Of a stretch of DNA of 64,000 nucleotides, positions 26,008 to 44,432 are shown piece by piece; within the stretch, counting starts at the first letter, position 1; every line of letters starts with the position of its first letter. The DNA is from Limisphaerales bacterium. Lineage in GTDB: Bacteria; Verrucomicrobiota; Verrucomicrobiia; Limisphaerales; UBA1096. Below the pieces are notes generated by a model. That model did not search any database, had not been told where the DNA came from, and worked only from the letters and a program-made list of their open reading frames with translations. Where the stretch lies: contig SHAK01000001.1 of the NCBI GenBank assembly GCA_004213515.1, positions 86,359-150,358 on the forward strand, written 5' to 3'. The position numbers and the translations under genes were made by a program.

Positions 26008-27285
26008 TTAGGATAGTAAGCCTTTTAATGGTCCAGTACTATCAGCAAAACGCTCCATACCTGTGCCCATTAATTGAGCTTGAGAGAGCCATAAATTGGC
26101 CAGTGGAGTTTTTTCAGGACAATTAAGAATGTGGCCAGTCTTGATACGTCCGTTAGCAGAACCTGCTACAATAATTGGAAGCTCATCCATTGTGTGGTCT
26201 TTACCATCTCCTAACCCTGAACCTAAAGTAATCATAGAGTGGTCTAAAAGAGTTCCTTCCCCCTCCTTAATCGAGTCCAACTGCTCTAAAACTTCCGCAA
26301 ATAACTCCACATAAAAGCGGTCAACTTGCGAAAGAGCCTTCTTTACGTCTTGTCTGTCTTGCGAATGGGTAAGTCCATGATGTGATTTCGTAAAATTTAA
26401 TTCATGAAAACGCTGTGGAGTTCCCCACCTTTCCGGTGCGAGCATGAACGTTGCAACGTGTGTAAGATCTCCTTGAAATGCCAGCACAAGCAATTTGCCC
26501 ATCATCCTTATGTACTCTCCACGCGTCATCGGCTCTTCATCCGGCTCTTTCATATCCGGCCGCTCATGCGTTGCGTAGTACTTGCTTAGCTTCTCAATCT
26601 GTTTTTCGATTTCTCTAACAGAAGTGAAGTATTCATCTAGCTTGTCTTTATCATGACTACTCAGATTCTTTTCAAAATTGGAAGCATCCTGCAGAATCAA
26701 ATCCGTAATATCCTTGTCGGATTTTCCCGTCTTAAAGAGACGCTTATAAACCTGCCGCGGATCTTTGATTGTCGTAGCTACATGTTCAGGCCCGTACCAG
26801 GAAATGTTGTCCAAATAAATCGATTCTTTGAGGTCTTTAAACGTATTACAATTCAGCTCCAAGGATCGAATAGGGGTTCGGTGGCTTACCTTATCTGCAA
26901 TCAAATGATCCAAGGTTCTGTCCATAGGGTAAGGTGATTTCAGCTCCCCATTAGGATTGGCTGACGAGAGGTAACATGAACTACATTGATTATGTACATC
27001 GACCCCTCTAACGTTAACCCGGGACAAACCTGTGATGAGTGTAACTTTTTTCCCCACTTTTTTAAGTGGTCTCAAAGTGGGCATCTCCAAAAAGTTTTGA
27101 TTACCCTTCTCAGGGAAAAAATGATCTCGCACAAAACCCATTGGCGAATAGAACGAAGCAAAACGCAGAGACGGGTCCTTTAATTTCTTTGTCAACGCAT
27201 CCTCTGCATACATCTCCAACCAAGGAAGGGCCATCACACCGCCTGCCGTCCCAAACAAAAACTTGCGCCTATCAATTTGATTCAT
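26008..27285 (-). CDS. DUF1552 family protein with a twin-arginine signal
   Basis: The N-terminus MNQIDRRKFLFGTAGGVMALPW is a Tat motif. The start overlaps the stop of the upstream DUF1592-type gene by 4 nt. Confidence 0.8.
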   Translation of the reverse strand: MNQIDRRKFLFGTAGGVMALPWLEMYAEDALTKKLKDPSLRFASFYSPMGFVRDHFFPEKGNQNFLEMPTLRPLKKVGKKVTLITGLSRVNVRGVDVHNQCSSCYLSSANPNGELKSPYPMDRTLDHLIADKVSHRTPIRSLELNCNTFKDLKESIYLDNISWYGPEHVATTIKDPRQVYKRLFKTGKSDKDITDLILQDASNFEKNLSSHDKDKLDEYFTSVREIEKQIEKLSKYYATHERPDMKEPDEEPMTRGEYIRMMGKLLVLAFQGDLTHVATFMLAPERWGTPQRFHELNFTKSHHGLTHSQDRQDVKKALSQVDRFYVELFAEVLEQLDSIKEGEGTLLDHSMITLGSGLGDGKDHTMDELPIIVAGSANGRIKTGHILNCPEKTPLANLWLSQAQLMGTGMERFADSTGPLKGLLS

Positions 27286-29912
27286 TGTTTCATCTTTTGG
27301 CTAAATACTAAGTGAACCGCCGTGTGTTTAATAAGGTCTCTCAATTTGTAATTATTACTCTCGCTCGCTTTCACAATTTCATCAACCGCAACTCGTTCCG
27401 ATACGATTAACTCTCGCCCTAAACCATAGGACAACAAATGCTTGGTGAAAGCCTTTGCAAACACGTCTTTTTCAGCAAGTACAGCATCCTTAAACCCAAC
27501 AACGTCTTTGAAAGGGTGCTTCCCGAATAATACACCACTAGCATCAACCTTCAAGCCCGTTCGGTACGTGTCTCTCCAGCGACCTAGTAAATCATAATTT
27601 TCCAAAGCAAACCCCAATGGATCAATTTTTTGATGGCAACCAGAGCATTGGGAGTCTTCGCTATGCCGATTTAATTTTTGCCTTACTGTTAGCCCCTCTT
27701 TTTCAAGTGTTGCGTCATCCGCATTTAAGTCAGGAATATTGTCAGGCGGGGGCTCCGGAGGATCATTGAAAATGACCGAGGAAACCCACGACCCTCGTGT
27801 GATAGGTAATGATCGAAATGGACCGGATGTCATCACCATCACGGCTCCCGTTGTAATCACACCACCGAACCTTCTATCTTTAAGTGGAGTTCGAGTGAAT
27901 TCAATATCACGAAGGTTGACGTTTATGGCATATGTAGCAGCTCTTCCTTGGTACCATTCTTCAAGTAAGTGACTGCGATAGGTGAAGTCTGAATCGACTA
28001 ATTCCATAATTGGCCTGTTCTCAATAAAAACAGTTTCAAAGTTTAGTAGCGGTTCCAACATCATATGCATCCCTCTCTTGTATGATATTTTGTCGTCGCC
28101 ACCGAAGTAGTAATTTCTATGAGTTTTGAAATCAGGTGATGCGGAAACTAAGTTGTTAATCCTTAGCCATTGAGGGGCAAAACTATCGCAGAAGTTTTTA
28201 ATACGACGATCGTTGAGCATCCGATCAACCTGGGCTTCGAGGACTTGTGGGTCTTGAAGCTTCCCTTCCCCTGCTAATGCCAATAACTCGTCATCAGGAA
28301 TCGAGCTCCACAGAAAAAATGAAAGGCGTGTCGCCAAATTATATGAAGCATGATTAGGCAAGTCGTCACTTGCCTTGTTGTGAACCATAATAAACCGCGG
28401 AGAAGCCAATACCCCTGATACTACATCCTTCATGCTTTTGGTGAAATCCCCACTTTCCTTATACTGCTTATCAAAATATTCCGTGTACAAATTTAAGGTT
28501 TTTGCATCGGCTGGAGACCTAAAAGCCCTGAGAAGAAATTCCCGAATGCGCTTATGAGCTATTACTTCAATCGGCTGATTCAGTTCTGGTTTAACATCAT
28601 TCTTGCGTTTCCAGCTCCCCACCATTTCCTCTTTGGCGACATCTTGTTTGCCCTTCGCTATCTCCTCAATCTGGGGCTTACTAAGCCCTGATCGAAACAA
28701 TCGAACATCATTAAGATCCCCGTGAAAAACTTCCTTCTGATGATACGATCCGATCTCCATCGGCTCCATACTCTGAGTGTAAAGCTTGCCCACAACCGCC
28801 TTACTCCCGACCTGCTTCCCATCCAAATAGAGATTCATTTCCTTCCCATCGAAGGTCCCAGCAACGTGATGCCACTTGCCATCTCCAAGGTAACTTGGTT
28901 TCACTGGGGCGCCGAATTCCACATATTGGCCTTCAATGCCCGCACCCATCCAAATTCCCCAAGTTCCATCTGTGTCGCCAATCGCCAATAACTGGCGCCT
29001 CCACGAATCCTCGCGACGAACAATGGTCTGCCAATTTTTAGTTACTTTTGTTGGGCGAATCCAAGCACTAATAGTCAGCCCCGTGCTATGCGTCGCGACG
29101 GATTTATCTGCGTTAATAAATCCAAATCCCTGGATCAATGGCTTCTGTGATGGATCCTGAAATAGATCATTCCAAATCTGACAGTTTTTATCAAAATTCT
29201 CAGCATTCACAACGGACCGACTAAGTTCCAAAAAGGCCTCCATGAGCGTTGGCGTCATACTGAGATGATCGCCGCGATTGTTGAACCCGTTTTCTGCGGG
29301 AGGATCTTTTGGAAATGCCATAACCCCCAGCAACCGATTCTCCAACATCTGCTGAAGCCCCATAATTCGATTACCCACTCTTGCGACTTTGGGCATTTTG
29401 CCGGTTTCGGGCCTGAAATAATTATTATGATCTCTAATGATTCGATCATTGATCGAGTAAACCCACGACTTAAGATCGAACAAGTCTCTTACAGCATTAC
29501 CGTATTCAAAACGATTCATCCGCCTAAGACTAAGTGGGGCGGCAGGGGTGCTATGAGCCATAGCATTTTTAAATGCATTCTCCAGCTCAATTAACATTAC
29601 TTTGCGCTGGTAAGCACTAGGCTGATTTTCCTCTTCGGGAGGCATTTCATTTTTATTCAATGCCTCGATCATTTTTTCAATGAGCTCTGGATTCTTTTCG
29701 AGATCCGCCCATGATTGGTAATCGGTTAGCTTGACCTTGCCTTTAGATTTTTTGATTCCATGGCAGTCGTAGCAATATTCTTTCAGAATTGGTACAATAC
29801 TTTTGTCAAAGTCATTAGCATATGCAGAAGGTTCTTGGGCCATAACCGAAGATGAGCAGGCTATAAATGCAAATAACATAAAACTAATAGCAGCGGGTGA
29901 ATTATATTTCAT
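27282..29912 (-). CDS. DUF1587/DUF1592/DUF1595/DUF1588-type protein with an N-terminal planctomycete cytochrome-c-like CxxCH and a LamG/concanavalin-like insert
   Basis: A signal peptide is followed by CYDCHG near the N-terminus. A LamG-like block (LTISAWIRP...GDLNDVRLF) is present, along with a conserved C-terminal Cys motif CSGCHQKIDPLGFALENYD. Length is 876 aa. Confidence 0.8.
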   Translation of the reverse strand: MKYNSPAAISFMLFAFIACSSSVMAQEPSAYANDFDKSIVPILKEYCYDCHGIKKSKGKVKLTDYQSWADLEKNPELIEKMIEALNKNEMPPEEENQPSAYQRKVMLIELENAFKNAMAHSTPAAPLSLRRMNRFEYGNAVRDLFDLKSWVYSINDRIIRDHNNYFRPETGKMPKVARVGNRIMGLQQMLENRLLGVMAFPKDPPAENGFNNRGDHLSMTPTLMEAFLELSRSVVNAENFDKNCQIWNDLFQDPSQKPLIQGFGFINADKSVATHSTGLTISAWIRPTKVTKNWQTIVRREDSWRRQLLAIGDTDGTWGIWMGAGIEGQYVEFGAPVKPSYLGDGKWHHVAGTFDGKEMNLYLDGKQVGSKAVVGKLYTQSMEPMEIGSYHQKEVFHGDLNDVRLFRSGLSKPQIEEIAKGKQDVAKEEMVGSWKRKNDVKPELNQPIEVIAHKRIREFLLRAFRSPADAKTLNLYTEYFDKQYKESGDFTKSMKDVVSGVLASPRFIMVHNKASDDLPNHASYNLATRLSFFLWSSIPDDELLALAGEGKLQDPQVLEAQVDRMLNDRRIKNFCDSFAPQWLRINNLVSASPDFKTHRNYYFGGDDKISYKRGMHMMLEPLLNFETVFIENRPIMELVDSDFTYRSHLLEEWYQGRAATYAINVNLRDIEFTRTPLKDRRFGGVITTGAVMVMTSGPFRSLPITRGSWVSSVIFNDPPEPPPDNIPDLNADDATLEKEGLTVRQKLNRHSEDSQCSGCHQKIDPLGFALENYDLLGRWRDTYRTGLKVDASGVLFGKHPFKDVVGFKDAVLAEKDVFAKAFTKHLLSYGLGRELIVSERVAVDEIVKASESNNYKLRDLIKHTAVHLVFSQKMKQ

Positions 29913-30269
29913 TTTACGTTAATTTCATAATGACATACTTATGATATAAATTTCTCACCACAGATTAGGCAAAGAATAGTTGAGCCTGCCGAATCCTTTT
30001 TTTGCCTCTAAATTTCTCCCCGCAGTTTGGGTAAGAGAATTTCAAAGGTTTTTATTGGTTAAGAAAAAACATTCCTCATTTTATAACTAAACTTCAAGCT
30101 CCATTCGTAAAGTTTTTAAAGAGAAATCGAGGCAAGAAGAAGGGGGAGTGCTGGGATATTTTTTAATGTAGATAAAAAATAAAGCTATTAGCCAATGTAG
30201 CATAATTTATAAAGCCTTCCTAATTTACGGCTCAAAGCTTGAAATATTTTAATATGTATATTATTATTT
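29913..30269. promoter_or_regulatory. AT-rich divergent intergenic region, presumed to hold promoters for the NfeD-flotillin-ATPase operon (+) and the DUF1592/DUF1552 operon (-)
   Basis: The 357-bp non-coding gap lies between divergently oriented operons. No specific -35/-10 assignment was attempted. Confidence 0.3.
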
Positions 30270-30944
30270 TTGAAATTCATAATCGTGAGTGAAATCATTT
30301 CAAACTTTCTACCACTATGGCAAGAATCTATAACGGGTGTAAACCTTCCTGCTACCTTGCTATTTGGAATAATTTTAATTTTTTGGATTTTTAATATTAT
30401 CGGAGTTTTGGGGACAGAATTATTGGACTTCCTGATTCCGGTGGATTTTGGCTCGATTGATATCCCGATACTATCTGGGGATACATTTGCCGGGATATTC
30501 GATTTCTTTTATATTGGCAAGGTCCCGCTGGTGATACTATTTAGTGTGTTTGGATTTGTTTTTTGGCCCACCTGCATTTTATCAAATTACTATCTTAATC
30601 CAGAAAAAACTTGGGGGATCGGGCTTATAGTTTTGGGACTAGGATCGATTGCTTCCATTTTCGCAATGAAACTTTCGCTAATGCCTTTTGAACGTTTCTT
30701 CGAATCAATTGCGAAGTTAGATGAATTGGATTCGCCTGATGCATTCCTTGGAAAAATTTGTACAATCAGGAGCCCGAAAGCAGACGAAAAGTTTGGCCAA
30801 GCTGAGATCGAAAATCCGGATGGAGCTCCGTTTTTGTTTAATGTAAAGCCCACCCGGGAAGGCGAGGTCCTAAAGCGAGGTGAATCTGCTGTAATTGTGG
30901 ATATAAAAGACAAAATTTTTAGTATTAAAAAAATAGATATTTAA
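30270..30944 (+). CDS. NfeD-like membrane protein (N-terminal TM helices plus a C-terminal OB-fold beta-barrel), the canonical partner of SPFH/flotillin proteins
   Basis: A hydrophobic N-terminal half is followed by a C-terminal segment (GKICTIRSPKADEKFGQAEI...GEVLKRGESAVIVDIKDKIFSIKKI) typical of the NfeD beta-barrel. The start is non-ATG: TTG at 30270, or possibly GTG at 30286. Confidence 0.72.
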   Translation: MKFIIVSEIISNFLPLWQESITGVNLPATLLFGIILIFWIFNIIGVLGTELLDFLIPVDFGSIDIPILSGDTFAGIFDFFYIGKVPLVILFSVFGFVFWPTCILSNYYLNPEKTWGIGLIVLGLGSIASIFAMKLSLMPFERFFESIAKLDELDSPDAFLGKICTIRSPKADEKFGQAEIENPDGAPFLFNVKPTREGEVLKRGESAVIVDIKDKIFSIKKIDI

Positions 30945-30959
30945 AAAAAAGATAAAAAA

Positions 30960-33041
30960 ATGATAAATATTACAACAATAGGTAACATGCTTACTAATGT
31001 TTCAATCATTGGTGGAGTTGGTGCGGTGATCATATTTTTTGGCCTTCTTGCGATCGCAGTTCGATGCATGAGAAAAGTAGAACCTGGCACTGTAGGTGTT
31101 CGAACAGGAATTGGAGGAATAACGGTTAGAGACTCTTGGTGCGTGGTTCTTCCCCTTATTCACAAGTACGATATCATGGATATTTCAGTTAAACGGTTAG
31201 AAATAAACCGGCAGGGGACTGACGGCTTGATCTGTCAGGATAATCTGCGTGCTGACATTACTGTAGCTTTTTACATAAGGGTGGACAAACCTCAGGCACA
31301 GGAAGTAGCTCAAGCAGTAGGATGCGATAGAGCATCAGAAATTGACCAACTCAGACAACTGTTTGAGGCTAAGTTTTCTGAAGCCCTAAAGACCGCAGGC
31401 AAGCAATTCGAATTCACTTCTCTCTACACAGAGCGAGATCAATTCAAACAGTCTATTCTTGAGGTGATTGGTAAGGATTTAAATGGCTACCATTTAGAAG
31501 ATTGCGCCATTGACTACCTAGAACAGACTCCGCTGGACAAGATGGATGCCAACAACGTTTTGGATTCGATAGGTATCAAATTAATTAACGGAGTGACAGC
31601 GAAACAAGCGGAAGAAGCTAACCAGATTTTACGAAATAAAGAGAAGGAGATTAAACGACAGGATGTTGAAGCTACGGAGGCTATCCTTCAACTTGATAAA
31701 CAAAAAGCAGAAGCCGAAGAGCAACAAAAACGAGAGATTGCGACCATTACAGCACGTGAGGTAGCCGAAGCCAATAAAGTCACCGAAGAAGAACGATTGA
31801 AGGCGGAATCAGCAAGAATCAATACCGAACAGGAGCTCGGAGTAGCGGAGGAAAACAAGCAGCGGCAAATCATTGTAGCGCAGAAGAACCGTGAAAGAAC
31901 ACAGGCAATTGAAACTGAACGGGTAGAAAAAGACAGGTTACTTGAGGTTACCGAAAGAGAACGAATTGTAACTTTGGCCAACATCGAGAAGGAAAAAACT
32001 ATCGAAACAGAACAAAAGAACATTCAAGAGGTTATCCGGGAACGGGTTGAGCTTGAAAAAACGGTTGTCGTTGAAAAAGAAAAAATTAAAGACACAGAAT
32101 CGTTTGCTACTGCTGATCGTGAAAAACGTGTTTTAATAACTAAGGCAGAAATGCAAGCAGAAGAAGCTTTGGTAAAAGATATTAAAGCTGCTGAGGCTGA
32201 AAAGAAATCAGCTGAATTAGAAGCAGAACAGGAGAAGTATAAGCAAGTTCTTGCTGCTGAAGGAGCCAAAGAAGCAGCTGAGATGAAAGCCGATGAAATT
32301 ATGATTGCAGCAGATTCTGAGGAAAAAGCTGCCACAAAACTTGCAGCAGCCAAGAAGAGCGAAGCATCTGGAGTCACTGCACTGGATGCCGCAGCAGGAT
32401 TAGCTCAAGCTAATGTCATTTCCGCAAAAGCAGAGGCCAAGGAGAAAGATGGAACGGCTGAAGCAAATGTGATGGAGCTGAAATTTCAAGCAGAGGCTAA
32501 AGGTATTATAGAAAAGGCAGAGGCAATGAAGATCTTTGACGGTGTTGGCCGCGAACATGAAGAATTCAAGTTGAACCTGAATAAGGACAAGGAAATCGAA
32601 TTAGCTCAGATCGAAGTCCACAAGGATATTGCGGAACAGCAAGCTCTCATAGTTGGGGAAGCTCTCAAAAGTGCTAACATCGATATTGTTGGTGGCGATA
32701 GCGTGTTCTTTGACAAGATCACTAATGCTATAACTCAGGGCAAATCAGTCGATCGCTTAGCAAAAAACAGCCAAGTTATTACCGATGTAAAAGATACGTT
32801 TTTTAATGGTGACCCTGATTATTTTAAACAAAAACTTACTGATTGGGCTGGGGATTTCGGAATTACAAGTGACTCGATAAAGAACCTGACAATCTCTGCA
32901 CTCATCGGGCAAATGATTAGCGAATCAAAAGACTCGGGAAAAACCTCAATTTTAAAACAGGCTCTAGAAATGGCAGCGAATTTTGGTATCGCAGACAATC
33001 CTGCCAATTCGGTGATCAATTTACCTAATTCTGAAAATTAA
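30960..33041 (+). CDS. Flotillin-family SPFH/Band-7 protein with an extended Ala/Glu-rich coiled-coil
   Basis: An N-terminal TM anchor is followed by an SPFH core (GTVGVRTGIGGITV...) and then about 350 aa of EA-rich heptads. At 693 aa it exceeds the roughly 500 aa typical of bacterial FloT/YqiK. It starts 15 nt after the NfeD-like gene. Confidence 0.9.
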   Translation: MINITTIGNMLTNVSIIGGVGAVIIFFGLLAIAVRCMRKVEPGTVGVRTGIGGITVRDSWCVVLPLIHKYDIMDISVKRLEINRQGTDGLICQDNLRADITVAFYIRVDKPQAQEVAQAVGCDRASEIDQLRQLFEAKFSEALKTAGKQFEFTSLYTERDQFKQSILEVIGKDLNGYHLEDCAIDYLEQTPLDKMDANNVLDSIGIKLINGVTAKQAEEANQILRNKEKEIKRQDVEATEAILQLDKQKAEAEEQQKREIATITAREVAEANKVTEEERLKAESARINTEQELGVAEENKQRQIIVAQKNRERTQAIETERVEKDRLLEVTERERIVTLANIEKEKTIETEQKNIQEVIRERVELEKTVVVEKEKIKDTESFATADREKRVLITKAEMQAEEALVKDIKAAEAEKKSAELEAEQEKYKQVLAAEGAKEAAEMKADEIMIAADSEEKAATKLAAAKKSEASGVTALDAAAGLAQANVISAKAEAKEKDGTAEANVMELKFQAEAKGIIEKAEAMKIFDGVGREHEEFKLNLNKDKEIELAQIEVHKDIAEQQALIVGEALKSANIDIVGGDSVFFDKITNAITQGKSVDRLAKNSQVITDVKDTFFNGDPDYFKQKLTDWAGDFGITSDSIKNLTISALIGQMISESKDSGKTSILKQALEMAANFGIADNPANSVINLPNSEN

Positions 33042-33089
33042 TATTTTTCATTAATTATTCTGAACTAAAATAGCTTTTCACGTAGCATC

Positions 33090-36000
33090 ATGTCAGAAGA
33101 AGATGCAGAGCAAACAGTGTCTACCGAGGTAAAGCCTGCCTTGGAGGGAGGCACCTACGAAATCATCAAGCAACGGTTGCTGAAACAGGCAGGCGAATTA
33201 AAAAAGAAAGTCCAGCAACTTGATGAATTAAGGAAGAGTGTATTCGGGTCGGTTCCGATGGCTCTGAAAAAAGCGGAAAGAATCACGACAGAACACAATT
33301 GTATACCTCGGGATATGATCCGGGCTGTAAGTGATACTTTTATATTTGGTTATAATGTGCAATTCGGCTTAAAGACATCGGTTCAAATCAGTGATGTTTT
33401 TGCTATCTTTGATTATAAAGACGAAGCATTTCACCCCCTAAGCCTAGAACCACTAAAAAGTGGCCAATTCGAGCAGGATTTCGCTAATCTATATAAGTAC
33501 TACAAAGAAACTAAATTTGTTAAGTTTTCACAAATAGGCCCGTTTCTTTTTATGGTTTTTCGTGTTGGCAAAAACGTTACTGACATCAAAACATTCAAAT
33601 GGGCAATTCAGAACGGAGAATTACATTACGTCGATAACCGAAGCGATCATGAGTTTGTATTTCCAGATCAATACCAATTTGAATGGGTCAGAACGCATAG
33701 GGATTTGCATCGTTTTGGAGAACATCCTCACGTCTCAATTGAAGATACTGTATTTGTGGAATGTATCGGGGGTGACCTAACGATTAAAATTGAGGATAAC
33801 ACTGACTCTGGGTCGGGAATTTTGTCTGAAGAGGTCGAGTTTAAGGATCAAACTCTGGACGATGCAGAAATCTTTTTTGCTAAGATTGGCCAAATCATTC
33901 TGTTAAAAATTAGACCATTTCAGGAAAAAGAATTCAGATACTTTGTTTACAATAATAAGTTACGTGAGGTTCATCGGTTTGATGCTCTAAAAGATGCATG
34001 TTGCATACTTCCAGAAGGCCATGGCGTGATTGTTCCCAACGGCTATTATTTGATCAACGGACAAATTAAAATTTACGAAAATGATCTGACAGAGATGATG
34101 TTCGAACGAATGGTCAGTTCTCCTAATGGGGAAGATTACATGTATGTTTTTTATAACAGATTACAGGGTAATTATACCATTTTGCCATATAACATCATCT
34201 CTCAAAATGTAGACAATCCAATTTATTGTAATGGCTTTTCTCTATTTAAAAACGGGGAGTTGACTTACTTCCGAATGGATGATGAACCCCAAAAACATCA
34301 TGTTGCGCAAATCTGGCAAACTCCCTTTACACTAGAGGAGCTTAACAGCGAAACCAACAAGGACCACTTTTTATATCAAATCGGAAATAGGGATGTAGTT
34401 CGCTGTATGGCAGAATGCAGTGAAATATTAAATCTCGCGACTCGAGACTCAACATACGACGAATTGTATATAGACTTGGTCAAACGGTCTCAAGATGTAG
34501 TTGAGTCCTATTTCTGGATTGATAACGATGGACTAAATGGAATCGTAGATTGCATTAATCAAATAAAGGAGACTTCAGGCCAAGCTATAGATGAATTCAA
34601 CAAAGTAAACCGTCTTAAAAAGGAGGCAATCGAAAGGCTCAAAGCTGTAGAAACTAAGACTAAAGAGATTTTTAATGAGATTAGTCGGAGCGAGTTTGCG
34701 CTCATTGACGATTTTGTTTCTAGATTGGCCGAACTAAGAAAGATTCGTGGAGAAATCATATCTCTTCGGGATGTCCCATATGTTGACCTGGAAAGGGTGA
34801 ATACATTTGAGGAAACTGTTTCAAGCAAGACACTGCAGCTTTCTGAATCTTGTGTTGATTTTTTGTTAAAAGAAGAATCCTTGAATCCATATCGAGATCA
34901 CGTGGCTCAACTAAAGGGATCGCTTGGAAATATTACAAAGGTCACAGAGGGAAATGAACTTGTTGAAAATGTAAGCGAAGCCGGTAACGAGTTGGAAATG
35001 CTTATCGACATCGTTAACAACTTGAAAATTGAAGACTCAACGCAAGCGACAAGAATCATCGACCAAATTACGGAGATCTTCACTTCAATTAATCAGTTAA
35101 AAGTTGCTGCCAACAAGAAAATCAAGGAGTTGCATGGTGTTGAAGGTAAAGCACAATTCGCAGCACAAATAAGGCTCATAAGTCAGTCAGTCGTAAGTTT
35201 TTTAGACCTTTGTGACTCCCCTGAAAAATGCGATGAATATTTGAATAAACTCATGGTTCAACTTGAGGAACTCGAAGGTTCCTTTGCTGATTTCGATGAG
35301 TTTATTATAGAGATTGCAGACAAAAGAACCGAAGCATATGAAGCGTTTGAAGCTAGAAAATTAAACCTCATAGAAAGCCGTAATAAAAAAGCGGTATCTT
35401 TGGTTTCATCAGCTGAACGCATATTAAAGGTTATCAGCAACCGTGTTGAAGGATTCGATTCCATTAACGATATCAACGGATATCTGGCTGCTGATTTGAT
35501 GGTCGAAAAGATACGCGGCATCATAGATAATCTAAATTCACTCGGAGATTCTGTAAAAGCGGATGATATTCAAGGGCGACTTAAAACCATACAACAGGAT
35601 GGGATTCGTCAGTTAAAAGATAAAAAAGAGCTGTTTCAGGATGGGGAAAATATTATCAGATTCGGAAAGCATAAGTTTTCGGTTAACACTCAGGATCTAG
35701 ATTTAACTATTCTCAGCCATGACGGTGATATGTGTCTTCATCTAACAGGCACAAAATTCTTTAGTAGCATTAAAAATCCAAAATTTCTGGAAACAAAAGA
35801 TGCTTGGGCACAGGATATCATTTCAGAAAATCGCGATGTCTATAGATCCGAATACTTGGGCTATCAAGTGCTATTATGGCTTGAGCAAAACGGCAGTATT
35901 AGCATCGAAGAATTCCTAAAATTAAATGATGCAGAAAGATTGAAAACGGTTCAGGATTTCATGGCTCCCCTTTACGCTGAATCCTATACCAAGGGTATTC

Positions 36001-38675
36001 ATGATCAAGACTCCTTAAAAATTCTGGAAGCCTTAACTACTATTTATAAAGCACAAAAACTGGCCCGCTATTCTCCAACTGCCCGGGCCTGCGCTTTAGT
36101 TTATTGGAACTTGTTTTGCCCAGCTGAATTAAAGTCACTTTGGCAGGCAAAACTTGAGGCTTTTCAGGAGAAAAACACACTCTTCCCTGGGCTTCAATTA
36201 AATACATTATATGTAGATGAGATTGAGAAATTAATCAGTGATTTTACAGTAGAAGAAAGAATATTTGACCAATCCTTGACGCGTGAATCAGCAGAGTACC
36301 TTTTTCATGAAGTTGCAAATGGCAAAGGGCAAGTCATCAGTAAGGAAGGAGCTGAACTAATAAATGGTTTCAACGCACACCTGAAGAAAACCAACAAGGA
36401 ATTGAATTATGAAAAATCCATAAAACCGCTCGAAAATTACCCTCGTAATAAATATCTAGTGATTCGGGACTGGGCTTCAGGATTCGTCAGGTCTACTGGG
36501 AATGAAGAACTTATTCAATACGAGGAGGAACTCACTAGTTTATTGTTACTTAATCATTACGATACGAGATTTATTGTTAACGAATCTAATTCCAAAGAAA
36601 TAAAAAACATGGCCGGGTCGCATCCGGTTATAGTGGACGATTGCTACCATCTTGATTTTCATAAGTTTCAAAACAAACTGAAATTTTTTGCGGATCAGTC
36701 CGTTCCGAAATATGCGAAGTATTTGGAATTAAAATCCAAAGTCATAGAAGATGGTCGGAAAGATTTAAGATTAACAGAGTTCCAGCCAAAGGTTCTTACC
36801 TCGTTTGTGCGCAATAAACTCATTAATGAAGTTTTTCTTCCAGTTATAGGTGACAACTTGGCAAAGCAACTTGGTGCGGCCGGTGATAGCAAGCGCACAG
36901 ACTTAATGGGATTGCTACTACTAATCTCTCCACCAGGTTATGGTAAAACCACTTTAATGGAATATATTGCCAATCGAATGGGCTTAATTTTTATGAAAAT
37001 TAATGGCCCAACTGTTGGCCATGAAGTCACTTCTTTGGATCCCAGTGAAGCCGGAAATGCTGGAGCTAGAGAGGAAGTTCAGAAACTAAACTTGGCTTTG
37101 GAAATGGGTGACAACGTAATGATTTATTTGGATGACATTCAGCATTGTAATCCAGAATTTCTTCAGAAATTCATTTCGTTATGTGACGCCCAGAGAAAGA
37201 TTGAGGGAGTGTGGGAAGGCCGACCTAGAACATATGATCTTAAAGGAAGAAAAGTAGCCGTGGTAATGGCCGGTAATCCATATACTGAAAGCGGTGAGAA
37301 ATTTAAGATCCCCGACATGCTATCTAATCGGGCAGATACATACAATTTGGGCGACGTCGTTGGGGGTAATGCAAATGCCTTCAAGGCTAGTTATATTGAA
37401 AACGCCGTCACTTCCAACCCTGTATTACAACAGCTCTCGAATAAGAGCCAAAAAGACATTCAAACATTCATTGAAATTGGTGAAACCGGTTCGAGAGAAG
37501 CGGCAAATTTTGAATCCAATTATTCTGTGGCAGAAATTAATGAGATTGTCTCTGTAATGCAAAAAATGGTTATTGTTCGGAATTTTCTTTTGGATGTTAA
37601 TTTAGAATATATTCGATCCGCTGCCATGGCAGATGAGTTCAGAACTGAGCCGAGATTCCAGCTTCAAGGATCCTATCGAAACATGAATCGGCTCGCGGAA
37701 AAAATATTACCTATTTTAAACGACCAAGAGGTCGATGAATTAGTCATTGATCACTACAAAAGCGAATCTCAAACACTGACTACAGGAGCGGAAGCAAATC
37801 TACTGAAATTCAAGGAAATGTTCTCCCTTTTATCTCAAGAAGAAGAGGTTCGATGGAATGAAATCAAAAAGACTTTTAAGAGAAATCAATTATTAGGTAG
37901 CACAGATCAAAGTGATCCTGTCGGTCGTGTTGTCGCGCAGTTGACTTCATTTCAAGAAGGACTGGGGTCTATACAAACTACCCTTGAGCAAAAACTAAAC
38001 CCAGAAAAGACTAAAGATTTATCAATAGACCTTAATCCGCTTGTTGAGCAATTGGGATGCATAGGTGAAAAGTTAGCATCATCAATGGCCAACAGTGTTG
38101 AAGGGAATCTAAAAAAAAATGAGCAGCAAGTCAGCTTAGAATTAACCAGCGAAATTAATAATAAATTCGAATTAATCAAAAAAGAGATTCTTAATTTAAA
38201 GAATGATATTCGTGATGCTAATCAAGAGCAAAAAAATACCGATCAGCCAATTTTAAAATCATCCGAAGTAGAAGAGAAATTCAAAAAACTTAATGATGGT
38301 TTAACGAACATCAAAGCGAAAATTGAAAAATTTCCAAATGATGAATTAGGAAAATTCAAAGACGAATTTGAAAAACAGTTGAACACTAAACTTGAGCCAA
38401 TAACGAAGAACATAGACGAGATCAAAAATTTACATCAAGAAGAGTGGCCCAAAGAACTTGAATTGAAGGGCAAACAAGTCGAAAAGATTGAACAGTTGGT
38501 CATGGAGATTTCTTCTTTGGTTTCTCAAAAGCCTTCCTCCGTTCCAGCAATACTCAGGGCATTGATTAACAAGTACGATCTAGATTCGAAAGGTAACCCC
38601 GAAAAGAACAAATCTTCGGACCAAGTCAAGAATGACAGTAAGCTCAAGGAAGTGCTTGAGCGTTTCAAAAAATAG
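33090..38675 (+). CDS. Giant 1861-aa protein with a single central AAA_5-type (dynein/midasin/MoxR/McrB-clade) P-loop ATPase domain; the N-terminal ~1280 residues are unassigned, and the C-terminal region is a Lys/Glu-rich coiled coil
   Basis: Walker A GYGKTT lies at 36936-36953 (residues 1283-1288) and Walker B IYLDD at about 37125-37136. The following DIQHCNPEFLQKFISLCDAQRKIEGVWEGRPRTYDLKGRKVAVVMAGNP mirrors the AAA_5 pattern (hhhDEInra..v...L..ll.e.r.....g.......F.liATmNP). The gene starts 48 nt after the flotillin stop. Confidence 0.85.
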   Translation: MSEEDAEQTVSTEVKPALEGGTYEIIKQRLLKQAGELKKKVQQLDELRKSVFGSVPMALKKAERITTEHNCIPRDMIRAVSDTFIFGYNVQFGLKTSVQISDVFAIFDYKDEAFHPLSLEPLKSGQFEQDFANLYKYYKETKFVKFSQIGPFLFMVFRVGKNVTDIKTFKWAIQNGELHYVDNRSDHEFVFPDQYQFEWVRTHRDLHRFGEHPHVSIEDTVFVECIGGDLTIKIEDNTDSGSGILSEEVEFKDQTLDDAEIFFAKIGQIILLKIRPFQEKEFRYFVYNNKLREVHRFDALKDACCILPEGHGVIVPNGYYLINGQIKIYENDLTEMMFERMVSSPNGEDYMYVFYNRLQGNYTILPYNIISQNVDNPIYCNGFSLFKNGELTYFRMDDEPQKHHVAQIWQTPFTLEELNSETNKDHFLYQIGNRDVVRCMAECSEILNLATRDSTYDELYIDLVKRSQDVVESYFWIDNDGLNGIVDCINQIKETSGQAIDEFNKVNRLKKEAIERLKAVETKTKEIFNEISRSEFALIDDFVSRLAELRKIRGEIISLRDVPYVDLERVNTFEETVSSKTLQLSESCVDFLLKEESLNPYRDHVAQLKGSLGNITKVTEGNELVENVSEAGNELEMLIDIVNNLKIEDSTQATRIIDQITEIFTSINQLKVAANKKIKELHGVEGKAQFAAQIRLISQSVVSFLDLCDSPEKCDEYLNKLMVQLEELEGSFADFDEFIIEIADKRTEAYEAFEARKLNLIESRNKKAVSLVSSAERILKVISNRVEGFDSINDINGYLAADLMVEKIRGIIDNLNSLGDSVKADDIQGRLKTIQQDGIRQLKDKKELFQDGENIIRFGKHKFSVNTQDLDLTILSHDGDMCLHLTGTKFFSSIKNPKFLETKDAWAQDIISENRDVYRSEYLGYQVLLWLEQNGSISIEEFLKLNDAERLKTVQDFMAPLYAESYTKGIHDQDSLKILEALTTIYKAQKLARYSPTARACALVYWNLFCPAELKSLWQAKLEAFQEKNTLFPGLQLNTLYVDEIEKLISDFTVEERIFDQSLTRESAEYLFHEVANGKGQVISKEGAELINGFNAHLKKTNKELNYEKSIKPLENYPRNKYLVIRDWASGFVRSTGNEELIQYEEELTSLLLLNHYDTRFIVNESNSKEIKNMAGSHPVIVDDCYHLDFHKFQNKLKFFADQSVPKYAKYLELKSKVIEDGRKDLRLTEFQPKVLTSFVRNKLINEVFLPVIGDNLAKQLGAAGDSKRTDLMGLLLLISPPGYGKTTLMEYIANRMGLIFMKINGPTVGHEVTSLDPSEAGNAGAREEVQKLNLALEMGDNVMIYLDDIQHCNPEFLQKFISLCDAQRKIEGVWEGRPRTYDLKGRKVAVVMAGNPYTESGEKFKIPDMLSNRADTYNLGDVVGGNANAFKASYIENAVTSNPVLQQLSNKSQKDIQTFIEIGETGSREAANFESNYSVAEINEIVSVMQKMVIVRNFLLDVNLEYIRSAAMADEFRTEPRFQLQGSYRNMNRLAEKILPILNDQEVDELVIDHYKSESQTLTTGAEANLLKFKEMFSLLSQEEEVRWNEIKKTFKRNQLLGSTDQSDPVGRVVAQLTSFQEGLGSIQTTLEQKLNPEKTKDLSIDLNPLVEQLGCIGEKLASSMANSVEGNLKKNEQQVSLELTSEINNKFELIKKEILNLKNDIRDANQEQKNTDQPILKSSEVEEKFKKLNDGLTNIKAKIEKFPNDELGKFKDEFEKQLNTKLEPITKNIDEIKNLHQEEWPKELELKGKQVEKIEQLVMEISSLVSQKPSSVPAILRALINKYDLDSKGNPEKNKSSDQVKNDSKLKEVLERFKK

Positions 38676-38795
38676 AGGCAAACACGATGCCTAATTTTAC
38701 TGACTATATTGCTTGAAAAACCAGTTAATCATTAAGCGCTGTTTGAAGACAGCAGTAAAACCCTCCAAAAACTTTTAATAAATTAGATAAAAAAG

Positions 38796-38866
38796 TGGAG
38801 CGGGTGAAGGGAATTGAACCCTCGTGTCAAGCTTGGGCTTGCGTTATACCATTGAACTACACCCGC
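38796..38866 (-). tRNA. tRNA-like element resembling tRNA-Gly (acceptor stem, D-arm, T-arm and CCA intact) but with an anomalous anticodon stem-loop
   Basis: The reverse complement reads GCGGGTG-TA-GTTCAATGGTATAAC-G-CAAGC-CCAA-GCTTG-ACAC-GAGGGTTCAATTCCCTT-CACCCGC-T-CCA. Folded by hand, the anticodon arm gives a 5-bp stem with only a 4-nt loop. The element is 71 nt including CCA, about 3 nt short of a canonical tRNA. Confidence 0.5.
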
Positions 38867-38919: not shown

Positions 38920-40260
38920 TTATTTAAAAACCAATGTTCGAATAATCTTACCATTTCTATCCCATTCATAAACTTGCCCGTTTTCCGAACCTCCAAAGAA
39001 CCTCTTACCATCAGTTGTTACATCAAGGCTATAAATAAGGTCTTTAGCTTTAGCCCATGTTTTCACTGGACTCTTACTTGCCTCACTACAAAGCCGTAAA
39101 GCTCCATCATCACTGGCTGTAATTAATTCTGTGTTATTAGCAGGCCAAACAACTGCTGCAACATTACCTGGGTGACCTGTAACAAGATTTTTTTGCTCGC
39201 GAGTTTCAATATCCCAAATTTTTAATTCCTTATCAGCAGCTCCACTGGCTAAAGATTTACCATTAGGCTTAAAAGCAAGACTCATAATAGGAGCAGAATG
39301 AGCCTCAATTTGTTTTAGCTGATTCCCATCAATCAAATTCCAAAAGCGAATAAGTTTATCTTCCCCAGCAGTGGCTAAGTATTCTCCGTCTGGAGACAAA
39401 GTTATATCGTAAATAGTGCCATTATGTGCCGACCATTCTATTACATTATTCAAGTCTTCAGAATTCCATATAGATATTTTACTTTTTTCCCCTGACGCAT
39501 TACTGGCAGAAATCAGTGATCTAGAGTCGGCACTAAAAGCAAGTGCTGTAACTCGCCCTGGCAATTCTTCTATCTCTCCAAATAACAACCAATCTTTAGT
39601 ATCCCACAAGTTCACTTTTCTAAACCCTCCGGTAGCTAATAGTTTCCCATCTGGACTCCAAGCAATCGACTGAACCGCATCTTTATGACCATTAAGTTTT
39701 TTTCTAAGCAATGTCTTTGTAGATAAATTATTAACAACCACCCGGTTGCCGTACGCAGCAGCAAGTTGTTGATCATCAGGGGAAAGCGTCAGTGCAAATA
39801 CTGGTCGATAATCATTTGGAAGATCTCCCAATTCGGAGGAAGCAACTATCCTATTTTCGATATCAAGCTCACTTGTGATCCAAGTTGGACCATCAAGAAT
39901 CCACTGACTTAAGATATTAATCTCATCATCACTCAATTGTTGTTTAGGTGGCATGTGAGGGTCGCTGATTGGTTTGATTAAACGAATAATCCTGCTTTCA
40001 TCAGGACTACCATCAATAAATGCAGAACCTTCTAGCCCCCCAATACGCGCTGTTTGATATGTAGTAAGATCGAGTTTTCCCTTACTTTTTTTTGGATTAT
40101 GGCAATTAACACAATGGTCACGCAAGATATGCATAGCATTTATAGCCAAATCGGAATCTTCCAAATCTTTAGCATTAGTATTTTCCAAATTAAATAATGC
40201 CAGCACAACGGCAATTACCCTTGCAACGGAAAAAAGTAATTGGATTATTAATAATCTCAA
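38920..40260 (-). CDS. Secreted WD40 beta-propeller protein with an N-terminal planctomycete cytochrome-c-like (PSCyt1) CxxCH domain
   Basis: A signal peptide is followed by CVNCHNPKKSKGKLDL. Repeated WD motifs occur (e.g. AWSPDGKLLATGG) and the protein is 446 aa long. Confidence 0.8.
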   Translation of the reverse strand: MRLLIIQLLFSVARVIAVVLALFNLENTNAKDLEDSDLAINAMHILRDHCVNCHNPKKSKGKLDLTTYQTARIGGLEGSAFIDGSPDESRIIRLIKPISDPHMPPKQQLSDDEINILSQWILDGPTWITSELDIENRIVASSELGDLPNDYRPVFALTLSPDDQQLAAAYGNRVVVNNLSTKTLLRKKLNGHKDAVQSIAWSPDGKLLATGGFRKVNLWDTKDWLLFGEIEELPGRVTALAFSADSRSLISASNASGEKSKISIWNSEDLNNVIEWSAHNGTIYDITLSPDGEYLATAGEDKLIRFWNLIDGNQLKQIEAHSAPIMSLAFKPNGKSLASGAADKELKIWDIETREQKNLVTGHPGNVAAVVWPANNTELITASDDGALRLCSEASKSPVKTWAKAKDLIYSLDVTTDGKRFFGGSENGQVYEWDRNGKIIRTLVFK

Positions 40261-40358: not shown

Positions 40359-43175
40359 ATGCGTACGTCGTCGGGAGATGGAGCTCTCTCAGGCCTCACT
40401 AAAGAAGAACGTCAAAAACCTCGCGGTCAAATCGGCCATGCGGAAAATTCATTATTTCTTGAAGAAAATTATGAACAATGGCGTATAGATCCGACAAGTG
40501 TTGATGCAAATTGGCAATCATTTTTCGAGGGTTTTGAACTAGGATCTCAACTCGAGCCAGACACAGAAATTACTGGCAGTAAAAATGAATCGCAAAGCGA
40601 TACTAATCATACCACCTCAGTCTTACCTGTCGTGGATCCTATGCGACAAGGAAGATTATCTCATCTATTGTTTGCATATCGTATGTTGGGTCATTATCTA
40701 GCAAATCTTGATCCACTAGGGTTCAACAAGCAGGAACTTCCAGAGTTGGAATTACATAATTTCAAATTTACTGAAGCAGACTTAGATCAGGAGTTTAATG
40801 CTGGCACAGCAGGAGGAGGAGGTCAAAAAACACTTCGTGAAATTCTACAAATCCTAAAAGACACTTACTGCCGTACCGTTGGAGCGCAATACATGCACAT
40901 CCAAAAATTCGAAATACGAAGATGGTTACGAGACAGAATGGAATCCACACGGAACCGTCCAATTTTTAAAAAAGAAAAAAAACGCCGAATACTCAAAAGT
41001 TTAATTGATGCCGAGCACTTTGAGAAATTTTTACATACGAGCTATGTAGGTCAAAAACGTTTTTCATTAGAAGGAGGCGAAACTCTCATCCCCGTTCTTG
41101 ATGCAATTATTGAAGGATCACCAAATCGTGGAATTTTCAAGATTGTGATGGGAATGGCGCATCGAGGACGACTCAACGTTTTAGCTAATATAATTGGCAA
41201 AGACTATAAGTTTTTATTCGATGAATTTGACGATAATTACGTACAGCAAGATGCACACGGCGATGGTGATGTTAAGTATCACCTAGGATATGAGAATACT
41301 CGCACTACCTCAGGCGGCAGCAAAGTTAGCATTAATTTAGCTCCCAACCCCAGCCATCTCGAAGCTGTTAGCCCAGTAGTTCAGGGCAAGACACGCGCTT
41401 TTCAGCGACTACTTAGCGACTCAAAGAATCGGCAAATGGTCTTGCCCGTCGTAATTCACGGAGATGCAGCATTTATAGGGCAAGGTATAGTGGCTGAGAC
41501 ATTCAATATGTCCCAACTTGAAGGATATAAGACGGGGGGGACTGTTCACATTGTCATTAATAACCAAATCGGATTCACCACCCTACCTCATGATTCACGC
41601 TCTACTTTATACTGCACTTCAACTGCTAAAATGCTGGATGTCCCAATTTTTCATGTAAACGGAAATGATCCTATCGCTGCTGTACATTGTATCGAAATGG
41701 CACTGGATTTCAGGCAGCAATTCAGTCGTGACGTTGTTGTTGATATTGTCTGCTACAGAAAGCATGGCCACAATGAAGGTGACGAACCAAGTTTCACTCA
41801 ACCTCAACTCTATGCAGCCATTGCAAATCAACCACTGATAAGCGATCTATTACTAAATTCACTTGCAAATGAAAACGTAATCAACAGGGATGAAGCGGAA
41901 GGATTTCGAAACTCATTTCAGGTTGCTCTCGAGTGTGCACGCAATGAATCTCGTAGTGAAACACATAAATTAAAGCCAGCAATCAAACCTCCACTAAGCA
42001 GCCCTGAGCTACTAGAAGAATGTAATACCTCAATCAATCTGGACCAAATTAAAGAAATAGGCCTTTCGCTGACTTCAGAACCAAAAGATTTCAACATTAA
42101 CCCAAAGATAAAGCGTTTAATCAGTCAACGCCGTGAGATGGTCCAAGGAGAGAGACCTATTGATTGGGGTATGGCCGAAGCCCTAGCCTTTGGATCACTA
42201 TTAACTGAAAAGATTCCAGTTAGACTTACTGGACAAGATGTTCGTCGCGGCACATTTAGTCATAGACATGCAGTTTATTATGAAGTTGGCACACGGAAAA
42301 GATACATACCACTCCGTAACCTATCCACTAATCAAGGTGATTTTCGAATTTTTAATTCTCCATTAACGGAAGCCGCCGTTCTTGGATTTGAATTCGGATA
42401 CTCCCTGGACTGTCCCAATATGCTACTTTTATGGGAAGCGCAGTTTGGAGACTTTACTAATGGAGCACAGGTTATAATTGATCAGTTTATCACCTCATCA
42501 GAGAGCAAGTGGAATGAAACCTCTAATATTGTATTATTACTACCTCACGGTTACGAAGGGCAAGGACCTGAACACTCTAGCGGGAGACTCGAGAGATTCT
42601 TGCAGTCGTGCGCCGAAGACAATATTCAAGTAGGTAATTTGACGACTCCGTCTAATCTATTTCATGCACTTCGCAGGCAGGCCCTCCGAACATGCAACAA
42701 ACCTCTAATCCTTATGACCCCTAAGAGTTTGCTTCGTGACCCACGCTGCACCTCATCGATTGCAGATCTAACAGATAGTAATTTTAATGAAATAATTCCT
42801 GATACTAAAAGAAACTCTTCAGCAAAACGCATCATTTTCTGTACTGGAAAAGTTTACTTCGACTTGGAGGCTTACAGAGAAAAACACAACTTAAATCACA
42901 CTGCAATTATTCGCATTGAACAGCACTATCCACTTCACAAATCGAAACTACTCGAAGCAGTTAAATGCCATCCAGAAGCAAGCTCCTTTGTTTGGTGCCA
43001 AGAAGAATCAGAGAACATGGGCGCTTGGTCTTTCTTTGAATCAATACTTAGAAAGTTACTAAACCAAGAAATCATTTATGCAGGACGCGACGCATCTGCA
43101 AGCCCAGCTACCGGCTCACGTGCCATACATCTCTTAGAACAGACCAAACTTATTGAGGAAGCCTTCACCCTTTAA
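40359..43175 (+). CDS. sucA: 2-oxoglutarate dehydrogenase E1 component
   Basis: The 938-aa protein has the ThDP-binding GDAAFxGQG region ([19 protein letters not shown]) and carries E1o-type N- and C-terminal domains. Confidence 0.95.
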
Positions 43176-43185
43176 TCGACAATTC

Positions 43186-44424
43186 ATGCCTACCCAAATC
43201 AAAGTTCCAGCAGTTGGTGAATCCATTAAAACGGTATATATAGCTGAATGGAAAAAGAATACCGGCGAATACTGCAATGCCGGGGATATTATTTGTGAAA
43301 TTGAAACAGACAAAGCCTCACAAGAAATACCCACAGAAGTATCTGGCATCATCACTACATCAGCAGAAATTGGGGACGAACTTCCCATCGGCGGAGTACT
43401 TGCCATAATTGATGAATCTGTAAATGAGGGCAATCCTGAGAAAGCTAACATCAGTAATGACTCAAATACAAATAAAGCTAATTCAGATGAAAACCAGATA
43501 TCAAAAACAGCTACCTCAAAAGAGACCTTAACTACTCCATCAGCTAGGGTTCATGCAGAAGAGCTTGGTATTGAATTATCAAATATCAAAGGCTCTGGTA
43601 AAGATGGGCGCATCCTGAAAGAAGATGTATTAGCCTCTACAAATGTTGAAAAAGAAGCGAAAACTTCTAACTTAATAGCTGGCAAAGATAATTTTAGCTC
43701 TGCATTGGAGTCTTCATCTGCCGAAGTAGTTGGCTTTACTCGCAAGCGAATGAGCATGATGCGACGCACTATCGCTAACCGTCTAGTCAGTGCACAAAAT
43801 GAGGCAGCTATGTTGACTACATTTAATGAAGCCGACATGTCTCAAATTATCGATTTACGCAAAACTCACCAAGAAAAGTTTATTGAAGCTCACGGTGTCA
43901 AATTAGGTTATATGTCGCTATTTGTGAAAGCTGTAGTTCATGCAATAGAAACTGTACCTAATGTTAATGCTGCCATTGATGGAAACGACATAATTTTATA
44001 CGACAAACCACATATAGGAGTGGCAATTTCTACAGAAAAAGGACTAGTCGTTCCAGTCATTAGAAATGCTAATGATCTCTCACTTGCAGACATTGAGAAA
44101 GCCATTATCAAACATGCTGAAAAAGCTCGATCAGGAAATGTCGAATTGAACGACCTTACTGGAGGTACTTTTAGCATTACCAATGGGGGTATTTTTGGAT
44201 CCATGATGTCCACTCCAATTTTAAATCCCCCACAAAGCGGCATACTAGGGATGCACACCATTCAGGAACGCCCGGTGGCACTAAATGGCCAAGTCGTTAT
44301 ACGGCCAATGATGTACCTCGCACTAACTTATGATCATCGAATCGTTGATGGCCGTGAGGCTGTTACCTTCCTAGTTGCTATTAAGGAGTTTATTGAAAAC
44401 CCAAATCTTAACTTGATAGATTAA
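43186..44424 (+). CDS. sucB: Dihydrolipoyllysine-residue succinyltransferase (E2o)
   Basis: A lipoyl domain (EIETDKA), an E3-binding domain and the catalytic DHRxxDG ([13 protein letters not shown]) are present. The ATG at 43186 is preferred over the ORF-track start at 43153 because it directly follows the sucA stop. Confidence 0.95.
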
Positions 44425-44432
44425 TTTAAAAA

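Follow-up and report, generated by a model that had tools for sequence, protein, structure and literature searches.

In the YqiJ-YqiK pair of Escherichia coli and the YuaF-FloT pair of Bacillus subtilis, a gene for a small protein with multiple transmembrane (TM) segments and a C-terminal OB domain lies directly upstream of a gene for a long flotillin, in which a membrane anchor at the N-terminus precedes an SPFH domain and a long coiled coil. Neither operon is known to continue downstream into a gene for a giant ATPase. The function of bacterial flotillins is still debated, and no energy-consuming partner of theirs has been studied. Here, we analyse a locus of a Limisphaerales bacterium in which both gene types recur in the same order, the flotillin with the features just listed, and in which an ATPase gene of this kind follows: three co-directional open reading frames (ORF1, ORF2, and ORF3; Table 1) in a 64,000-nucleotide stretch of contig SHAK01000001.1 (hereafter ‘the window’) that encode a YqiJ/YuaF-type membrane protein, a flotillin-type SPFH protein, and a very large, soluble AAA+ ATPase.

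The closest described system is an operon reported from comparative genomics within the bacterial membrane-stress (PspA) network (Ravi, Anantharaman, ... Aravind, and Gennaro 2024, mSystems; PMC11237479). That study frames PspA as a member of the ESCRT-III superfamily and describes a CesT/Tir-PspA pair combined with a band-7/flotillin protein, a YqiJ/YuaF protein, and a beta-propeller/coiled-coil AAA+ ATPase, as well as abbreviated operons without PspA in which only the flotillin, YqiJ/YuaF, and AAA+ ATPase genes are found. It comprises no structure-based assignment of the ATPase to an AAA+ clade, no synteny statistics, and no experiments, and the prior literature on the link between flotillin and ATPase amounts to one paragraph of it. 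The window holds the PspA-less ‘abbreviated’ form of this operon: the same three proteins are present, with the same domain architectures and in the gene order of the Dokdonia donghaensis example (Table S3 of PMC11237479, which also matches the Bacteroidota loci examined here), whereas the CesT/Tir-PspA pair and the helix-turn-helix (HTH) regulator are absent. That the ATPase family is the one of the published example is inferred from matching architecture, taxon, and gene order rather than from direct sequence comparison. The operon is accordingly already known, from comparative genomics only, and the original prediction for this locus, which had been made from the sequence of the window alone, erred in presenting the partnership as undescribed, given that even the PspA-less forms appear in PMC11237479.

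The present analysis adds an estimate of how tightly the three genes are linked. The ATPase is present in at least 584 GTDB species representatives, which span, among the matches listed, Verrucomicrobiota, Planctomycetota, Bacteroidota, Desulfobacterota, Omnitrophota, Kiritimatiellota, and Clostridia; its sequence is 45-58% identical across phyla, with a mean column identity of 60%. Synteny was counted for 61 ATPase loci with at least 3.2 kb of upstream sequence, and 58 of these carry, directly upstream and in the same orientation, a gene for a near-full-length ORF2 homologue (39-61% identity). A YqiJ-like gene lies ahead of the flotillin gene in about 47 of 53 loci. The triad also occurs in Gimesia and Binatia and, at 33-40% ATPase identity, in five more loci belonging to Gammaproteobacteria, Actinomycetota, and Deinococcota (Pseudomonas fluorescens plasmid pQBR103, Proteus mirabilis, Streptomyces, Vibrio campbellii, and Deinococcus). 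In the flanks of the triad, no further gene family is conserved except for the PspA, CesT/Tir, and HTH-regulator genes of a Bacteroidota subset; this marks the triad itself as the selected unit. Among plasmids, the ATPase was found in 13 of 72,556 records, mostly megaplasmids, chromids, or mislabelled chromosomes.

The original prediction had treated the three genes as a functional unit and proposed that the neighbourhoods of ATPase homologues be checked for SPFH genes. Homologues mostly without SPFH neighbours are clearly not what these neighbourhoods contain, and the more distant loci repeat the arrangement; judged from gene order across genomes, the case that the triad genes are functionally coupled is very strong. 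The copy in the window is an ordinary member of a widespread module that has spread both vertically and horizontally.

Some variation in the composition and annotation of the module deserves mention. In six Verrucomicrobiota loci (L011, L014, L016, L020, L021, and L065), the flotillin shares only about 40% identity with ORF2 and the upstream region yielded no YqiJ-like gene; this subgroup represents the module in a two-gene form. In many loci of Bacteroidota, and in some from other groups, the flotillin and ATPase genes are separated by one to four short genes (about 80-240 aa) in the same orientation (e.g. L080:5874-7774, L052:6516-7940, L025:6615-7781, L027:6609-7695, and L023:6619-7917). 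These were considered as a conserved fourth component in Bacteroidota and rejected as such, being not one family and having no significant Pfam match; one of them encodes a lipoprotein and another has a weak DUF3592 match, and they look like variable accessory components. In P. mirabilis, the three proteins measure 209, 731, and 1,644 aa. The P. mirabilis ‘plasmids’ of about 4.08 Mb in PLSDB (NZ_OL790811.1 and NZ_OL790812.1) are evidently mislabelled chromosomes.

A connection of the triad with membrane stress comes from its recurrent association with PspA. In 16 Bacteroidota loci, PspA is encoded upstream in the operon (PspA_IM30, E=6e-41), in 14 of them together with a CesT/Tir-YbjN-like protein (CesT_Tir, E=3e-58), and a divergent HTH regulator gene is present in 13 Bacteroidota loci, the full order being divergent HTH, CesT/Tir, PspA, YqiJ, flotillin, ATPase. 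Outside this phylum, the triad of P. fluorescens SBW25 plasmid pQBR103 (L084, 85112-97641) ends a cluster that is headed by PspA and that also holds genes for a rhomboid, DUF2491, DUF350, and DUF1190 proteins, and glutathionylspermidine synthase. The membrane-stress role suggested in the original prediction gains support from both contexts. Experimental precedent for such a connection exists in B. subtilis, where PspA is reported to be recruited to the membrane by an SPFH protein (PMC8581546). The pQBR103 cluster, on a well-studied megaplasmid, joins two PspA contexts that are treated separately in PMC11237479.

Identification of the second protein of the triad depended on its predicted structure. 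ORF2 itself has no match to Pfam (Band_7 and Flotillin included) even at E<10, and searches of the PDB by sequence, both with the single sequence and with a 20-sequence profile, returned nothing useful, so that a fold search was needed. In the AlphaFold2 model, an N-terminal TM helix (aa 4-36), followed by the positive residues RCMRK, leads into an SPFH alpha/beta domain (aa 37-190, nt 31068-31529) with a predicted local distance difference test (pLDDT) score above 80, and then into very long helices (aa 200-571) and a conserved helical C-terminal region. Every one of the 27 significant Foldseek matches in the PDB is an SPFH protein (E from 4e-10 to 8e-5); they include prohibitin, HflK/C, erlin, flotillin, stomatin, and QmcA, and the longest alignments, of about 400 columns, are to human flotillin-1/2. 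Existing annotation points in the same direction: relatives are named flotillin/YqiK by NCBI and JGI, and a precomputed Pfam Band_7 match is recorded for a protein 93% identical to ORF2 (P0121) and for the protein at the flotillin position on the contig of an 85%-identity ATPase relative (L090). As modelled, ORF2 is a flotillin-type protein, its SPFH fold continuing into a long coiled coil.

Hydropathy points to about three hydrophobic segments in ORF1 (aa ~21-135), whose C-terminal part (aa ~159-218) forms an OB-like domain. The Pfam matches of ORF1 are sub-threshold only (YqiJ_N, E=0.022; YqiJ_OB, E=0.011), and at the level of the family, YqiJ_N matches 15 of 49 members (best E=3.6e-8). The sole PDB match of the family profile is B. 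subtilis YuaF (E=0.11), which is the NfeD-type partner of FloT. With moderate confidence, these sequence comparisons place ORF1 among the NfeD-like proteins with three TM segments of the YqiJ/YuaF type. The window proteins differ from described NfeD-flotillin pairs in lying at or under the threshold for the Pfam models; the NfeD and flotillin labels first given to them are thus not recognized by Pfam in these proteins themselves and are upheld by the fold of ORF2 and the family-level matches of ORF1.

ORF3 has no hydrophobic segment, its highest 19-residue Kyte-Doolittle mean being 1.2. The protein had been described as containing one recognizable module, an AAA_5-type ATPase domain some 1280 residues from the N-terminus. 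The position is correct, with a Pfam match at residues 1276-1401 for which AAA_5 and AAA score near-equally (E=4e-7 and 2e-6, respectively), and the module is not alone: DUF3686 and DUF7902 match strongly too (Table 1), the latter within a region (aa ~480-850) whose composition is helical and coiled-coil-like. A structure model was computed for residues 1-490 joined to residues 1215-1625 from a 43-homologue alignment (mean pLDDT 79.7). In this model, a helix (aa 22-52) precedes a beta-propeller of about seven four-stranded sheets (aa 58-410), after which helices follow; pLDDT in the DUF3686 region is mostly 80-92, and the Foldseek matches of the propeller are to propellers of Elp1, IFT-A, clathrin, and WD40 proteins. 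The region of aa 850-1214 was considered as a degenerate second AAA+ domain and rejected (hhalign probability 0.2%). The C-terminal tail (aa 1621-1861) has 0% invariant columns among five phyla, and E, K, Q, and L together make up 0.41-0.51 of its residues, a composition that accounts for weak PADLOC matches to the coiled coil of ZorA.

Full-length relatives of ORF3 are numerous: they make up more than 4,300 clusters at 90% identity and share about 50% identity across about 90% of the length, and a protein with 99% identity has already been made public. Database names for these relatives are ‘DNA repair ATPase’, ‘MoxR-like ATPase’, and ‘hypothetical’; none of the triad proteins is covered by an NCBIfam model.

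The ORF3 family is without a solved structure, and its sequence similarity to PDB entries (p97 and RuvB) extends over only some 40 residues at the P-loop, so sequence and profile searches cannot assign it to an AAA+ clade. In the AlphaFold2 model, the AAA+ core has an extra beta-hairpin (aa ~1370-1383) between helix 3 and the sensor-1 strand, and in structure it is matched best by the MoxR ATPases NorQ and CbbQ, whereas dynein and midasin score about 3 Z units under the MoxR proteins, level with ClpB and Cdc6. The model thereby supports the assignment of the ORF3 ATPase core as structurally closest to MoxR proteins (AAA_5 group); the initial AAA_5-type call holds, and the suggestion that the protein might bear in a special way on the origin of dynein and midasin does not. 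The motifs of the nucleotide-binding site, i.e. Walker A (SPPGYGKT, aa 1280-1287), Walker B (LDD, aa 1347-1349; window 37128-37136), sensor-1 N1396, R1414, and lid R1530, are invariant in 43 sequences and five phyla. An aromatic pore-loop motif after beta-2 is lacking from the ORF3 family alignment. Described MoxR ATPases (NorQ/NorD, CbbQ/CbbO, and RavA/ViaA) are about 250-350 aa long and have a VWA/MIDAS partner; in ORF3, unlike these, some 1,200 residues of propeller, coiled-coil, and helical domains precede the module in the same polypeptide, and Walker B contains DD.

An SPFH cage joined to an AAA+ machine at a membrane is also a feature of HflK/C-FtsH, prohibitin-m-AAA, and SLP2-YME1L, and the fold of ORF2 matches HflK/C and prohibitin. 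The ATPases of those systems, however, are membrane-anchored AAA proteases of the classical clade, whereas ORF3 is soluble, protease-less, and MoxR-like. We lean towards the reading that the ATPase works on the flotillin scaffold, or together with it, in the maintenance of the membrane or in its response to stress, for which the evidence includes the architecture of the proteins, their conserved adjacency, the recurrent PspA link, and the intact, invariant nucleotide-binding site.

The mechanism that we envisage for this reading starts from topology: the SPFH/coiled-coil part of the flotillin and the ATPase would both face the cytoplasm, where the positive residues following the flotillin TM helix and the lack of a TM segment in the ATPase place them. 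In solved structures, SPFH proteins are arranged as rings or domes on membranes, and one such cage, that of QmcA-YbbJ, has an NfeD protein bound within (as stated in PDB titles); by analogy, the flotillin with the bound OB domain of the YqiJ-like protein may assemble into a dome-like oligomer on the inner membrane face. The AAA+ module would mediate oligomerization of the ATPase, probably into a hexamer as in NorQ and CbbQ, with the propeller and coiled-coil arms reaching the scaffold, and ATP use would then remodel the flotillin assembly, be it by assembling, opening, or dismantling it. Where PspA is present, the ATPase may remodel PspA polymers too, in envelope stress or membrane maintenance. 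Since the core is MoxR-like, lacks an aromatic pore loop, and has DD in Walker B, remodelling of a folded partner or a slow switch seems likelier than processive threading or unfolding. Only tentatively do we entertain the narrower proposal that the ATPase is a dedicated ATP-driven assembly/disassembly factor for flotillin cages, acting on them as Vps4 does on ESCRT-III; its propeller and coiled-coil arms would hold the cage, and force would come from the MoxR-like ring. The likeness to Vps4/ESCRT-III is a functional analogy only, in that here, too, an AAA+ ATPase is genetically coupled to a polymer-forming membrane remodeller (PspA).

Several observations weigh against an action of the ATPase on the flotillin scaffold. 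Three of the 61 ATPase loci (L028, L033, and L058) have no flotillin homologue within 8 kb upstream. NorQ, one of the closest structural matches, works with a VWA-domain partner, NorD, as seen in the fold-match structures, and CbbQ works with the VWA-domain partner CbbO; Pfam detects no VWA domain in ORF1, ORF2, or ORF3, and no such family is found among the conserved neighbours. Walker B is DD, not DE, in every family member examined from five phyla. DnaA and the D2 domain of NSF likewise have a DD Walker B, and their ATP hydrolysis is slow or absent; hydrolysis by the ORF3 family may be slow or switch-like rather than motor-like. PspA and CesT have no match in the whole 64-kb window. Finally, our literature search found no experimental study of the ATPase or of any other member of the triad.

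Other explanations draw on part of the same evidence. The flotillin-ATPase synteny would equally suit client quality control, in which damaged or unassembled membrane proteins are confined by a flotillin cage and the ATPase pulls them out or passes them on. The ATPase would then act on clients and not on the scaffold, in functional analogy to FtsH within HflK/C or to m-AAA/YME1L with prohibitin/SLP2. Here, the combination of an SPFH cage and an AAA+ machine is seen repeatedly, the fold matches of ORF2 include an HflK/C-FtsH structure (a complex that is also the topic of PMC13220708), the pQBR103 cluster includes a rhomboid protease, and an esterase is inserted in one locus. We nevertheless consider this role rather unlikely, because the ATPase has neither a protease domain nor a TM anchor, is MoxR-like and not classical or FtsH-like, and lacks the aromatic pore-loop motif after beta-2, and because no protease gene is conserved in the neighbourhood. 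More improbable still is the function in anti-phage defence or abortive infection that the original prediction had raised, by which the ATPase would sense infection and the flotillin/YqiJ pair would damage or seal the membrane. A large, NTPase-containing system that is patchy across phyla and sometimes located on megaplasmids has the look of a defence system, and SPFH and PspA proteins figure in some of the literature on conflict systems, but PADLOC yields no significant match for it (the best being coiled-coil/P-loop noise, E of 3e-4 or worse) and 50,697 phage records contain no homologue of the ATPase. The conservation of the ATPase across phyla is, moreover, unusually high for a defence gene, the flanking genes vary without any defence gene family recurring, and the partners that do recur, PspA and CesT/Tir, are stress proteins.

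The name ‘DNA repair ATPase’ implies a third function, which is suggested by the NCBI product name, by Pfam's description of DUF3686 (‘ATPase involved in DNA repair’), by weak P-loop similarities to RuvB, and by the divergent HTH regulator of Bacteroidota loci, annotated as cHTH+protease (LexA-like) in PMC11237479. Yet Pfam detects no nuclease, helicase, or DNA-binding domain in ORF3, the similarity to RuvB does not extend beyond some 40 residues at the P-loop, the genes obligately found beside ORF3 encode membrane proteins, and no paper supporting the name was found. We give a function in DNA repair hardly any credence; the product name, which goes back to the Pfam text on DUF3686, has probably spread from generic coiled-coil/SMC-type annotation and is probably misleading.

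An action of the ATPase on the flotillin scaffold would matter beyond this locus, as a flotillin is tied near-obligatorily to a large MoxR-like motor in this many species representatives and phyla, with PspA joining recurrently. If the ATPase does prove to be a cage assembly/disassembly factor, it would represent the first known case of energy-dependent regulation of an SPFH microdomain and would provide a direct experimental handle on bacterial flotillin function. Homologues exist in tractable hosts (P. mirabilis, P. fluorescens SBW25/pQBR103, Streptomyces, V. campbellii, and Hymenobacter), so the effect of ATP hydrolysis on the flotillin scaffold is directly testable.

Table 1. Features of the flotillin-ATPase locus, with positions counted from the first nucleotide of the window.
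Feature	Position	Strand	Basis or remarks
AT-rich intergenic leader	29913..30269	+	357 bp; common to the triad and the divergent PSD/PSCyt gene
ORF1, YqiJ/YuaF-type NfeD-like membrane protein, 224 aa (TTG start)	30270..30944	+	Hydropathy, family-level matches
ORF2, flotillin-type SPFH protein, 693 aa	30960..33041	+	AlphaFold2 model, Foldseek
ORF3, soluble giant ATPase of the DUF3686/DUF7902/AAA family, 1861 aa	33090..38675	+	Pfam
DUF3686, ORF3 aa 36-475	33195..34514	+	Pfam E=3e-176; 586.7 bits vs gathering cut-off 25
DUF7902, ORF3 aa 597-680	34878..35129	+	Pfam E=3.8e-23; 81.9 bits vs gathering cut-off 26
MoxR-like AAA+ module, ORF3 aa 1215-1610	36732..37919	+	Motifs, AlphaFold2 model, fold matches
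Variable charged low-complexity tail, ORF3 aa 1621-1861	37950..38672	+	Composition, conservation
Weak terminator-like hairpin	38676..38692	+	Right after the ORF3 stop codon; 5-bp stem, then AATTTT

The layout of the locus agrees with what was first reported for it, i.e. three co-directional genes separated by gaps of 15 nt (ORF1/ORF2) and 48 nt (ORF2/ORF3). From this spacing, together with the conserved synteny, we infer that the three genes are co-transcribed. Neither gene junction has a Shine-Dalgarno sequence. The leader had been taken for an AT-rich promoter region, and its length and low GC content (0.30-0.36 vs about 0.40 in the surroundings) are as described, whereas promoter-like motifs are not enriched (20 vs 23.5 in shuffled sequence). 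The top sigma-70-like site (30239-30267, TTGAAA-17-TATTAT, 10/12) ends 3 nt 5' of ORF1. A scan for terminator-like motifs was likewise not above chance (11 vs 7.0 in shuffled sequence); the weak hairpin after ORF3 is kept in the 99%-identity relative and in part in the 85%-identity relative.

The start of ORF1 is uncertain, the candidates being the TTG at 30270, which is that of the mechanically called ORF, and a GTG at 30285. Initiation at the latter yields the N-terminus MSEIIS..., which matches the family consensus, and in the 85%-identity relative the gene is called as 219 aa instead of 224 aa.

The genes flanking the triad in the window are typical of Planctomycetota-Verrucomicrobiota-Chlamydiota (PVC) bacteria and comprise genes for DUF1552 (HXXSHH), PSCyt/PSD-domain, and PSCyt1-WD40 proteins (26008-29912 and 38920-40260, both on the - strand); a cluster for 2-oxoglutarate dehydrogenase E1/E2/E3 lies downstream of the triad (40359-45824, + strand). 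None of these flanking genes is kept beside the triad in the other genomes compared.

Between ORF3 and the WD40/PSCyt1 gene lies a tRNA-like element (38799-38866, - strand), which scores 53.8 bits (E=4e-11) with the Rfam tRNA model; its acceptor, D, and T arms are intact, and CCA is encoded. Its anticodon loop is only about 4 nt long, and ARAGORN does not call it. The element is missing from the 85%-identity relative. In the contig encoding the 99%-identical ATPase, it differs by five substitutions in 68 nt, T-loop included, compared with two in the rest of the 244-nt spacer, and it looks like a decaying tRNA pseudogene.

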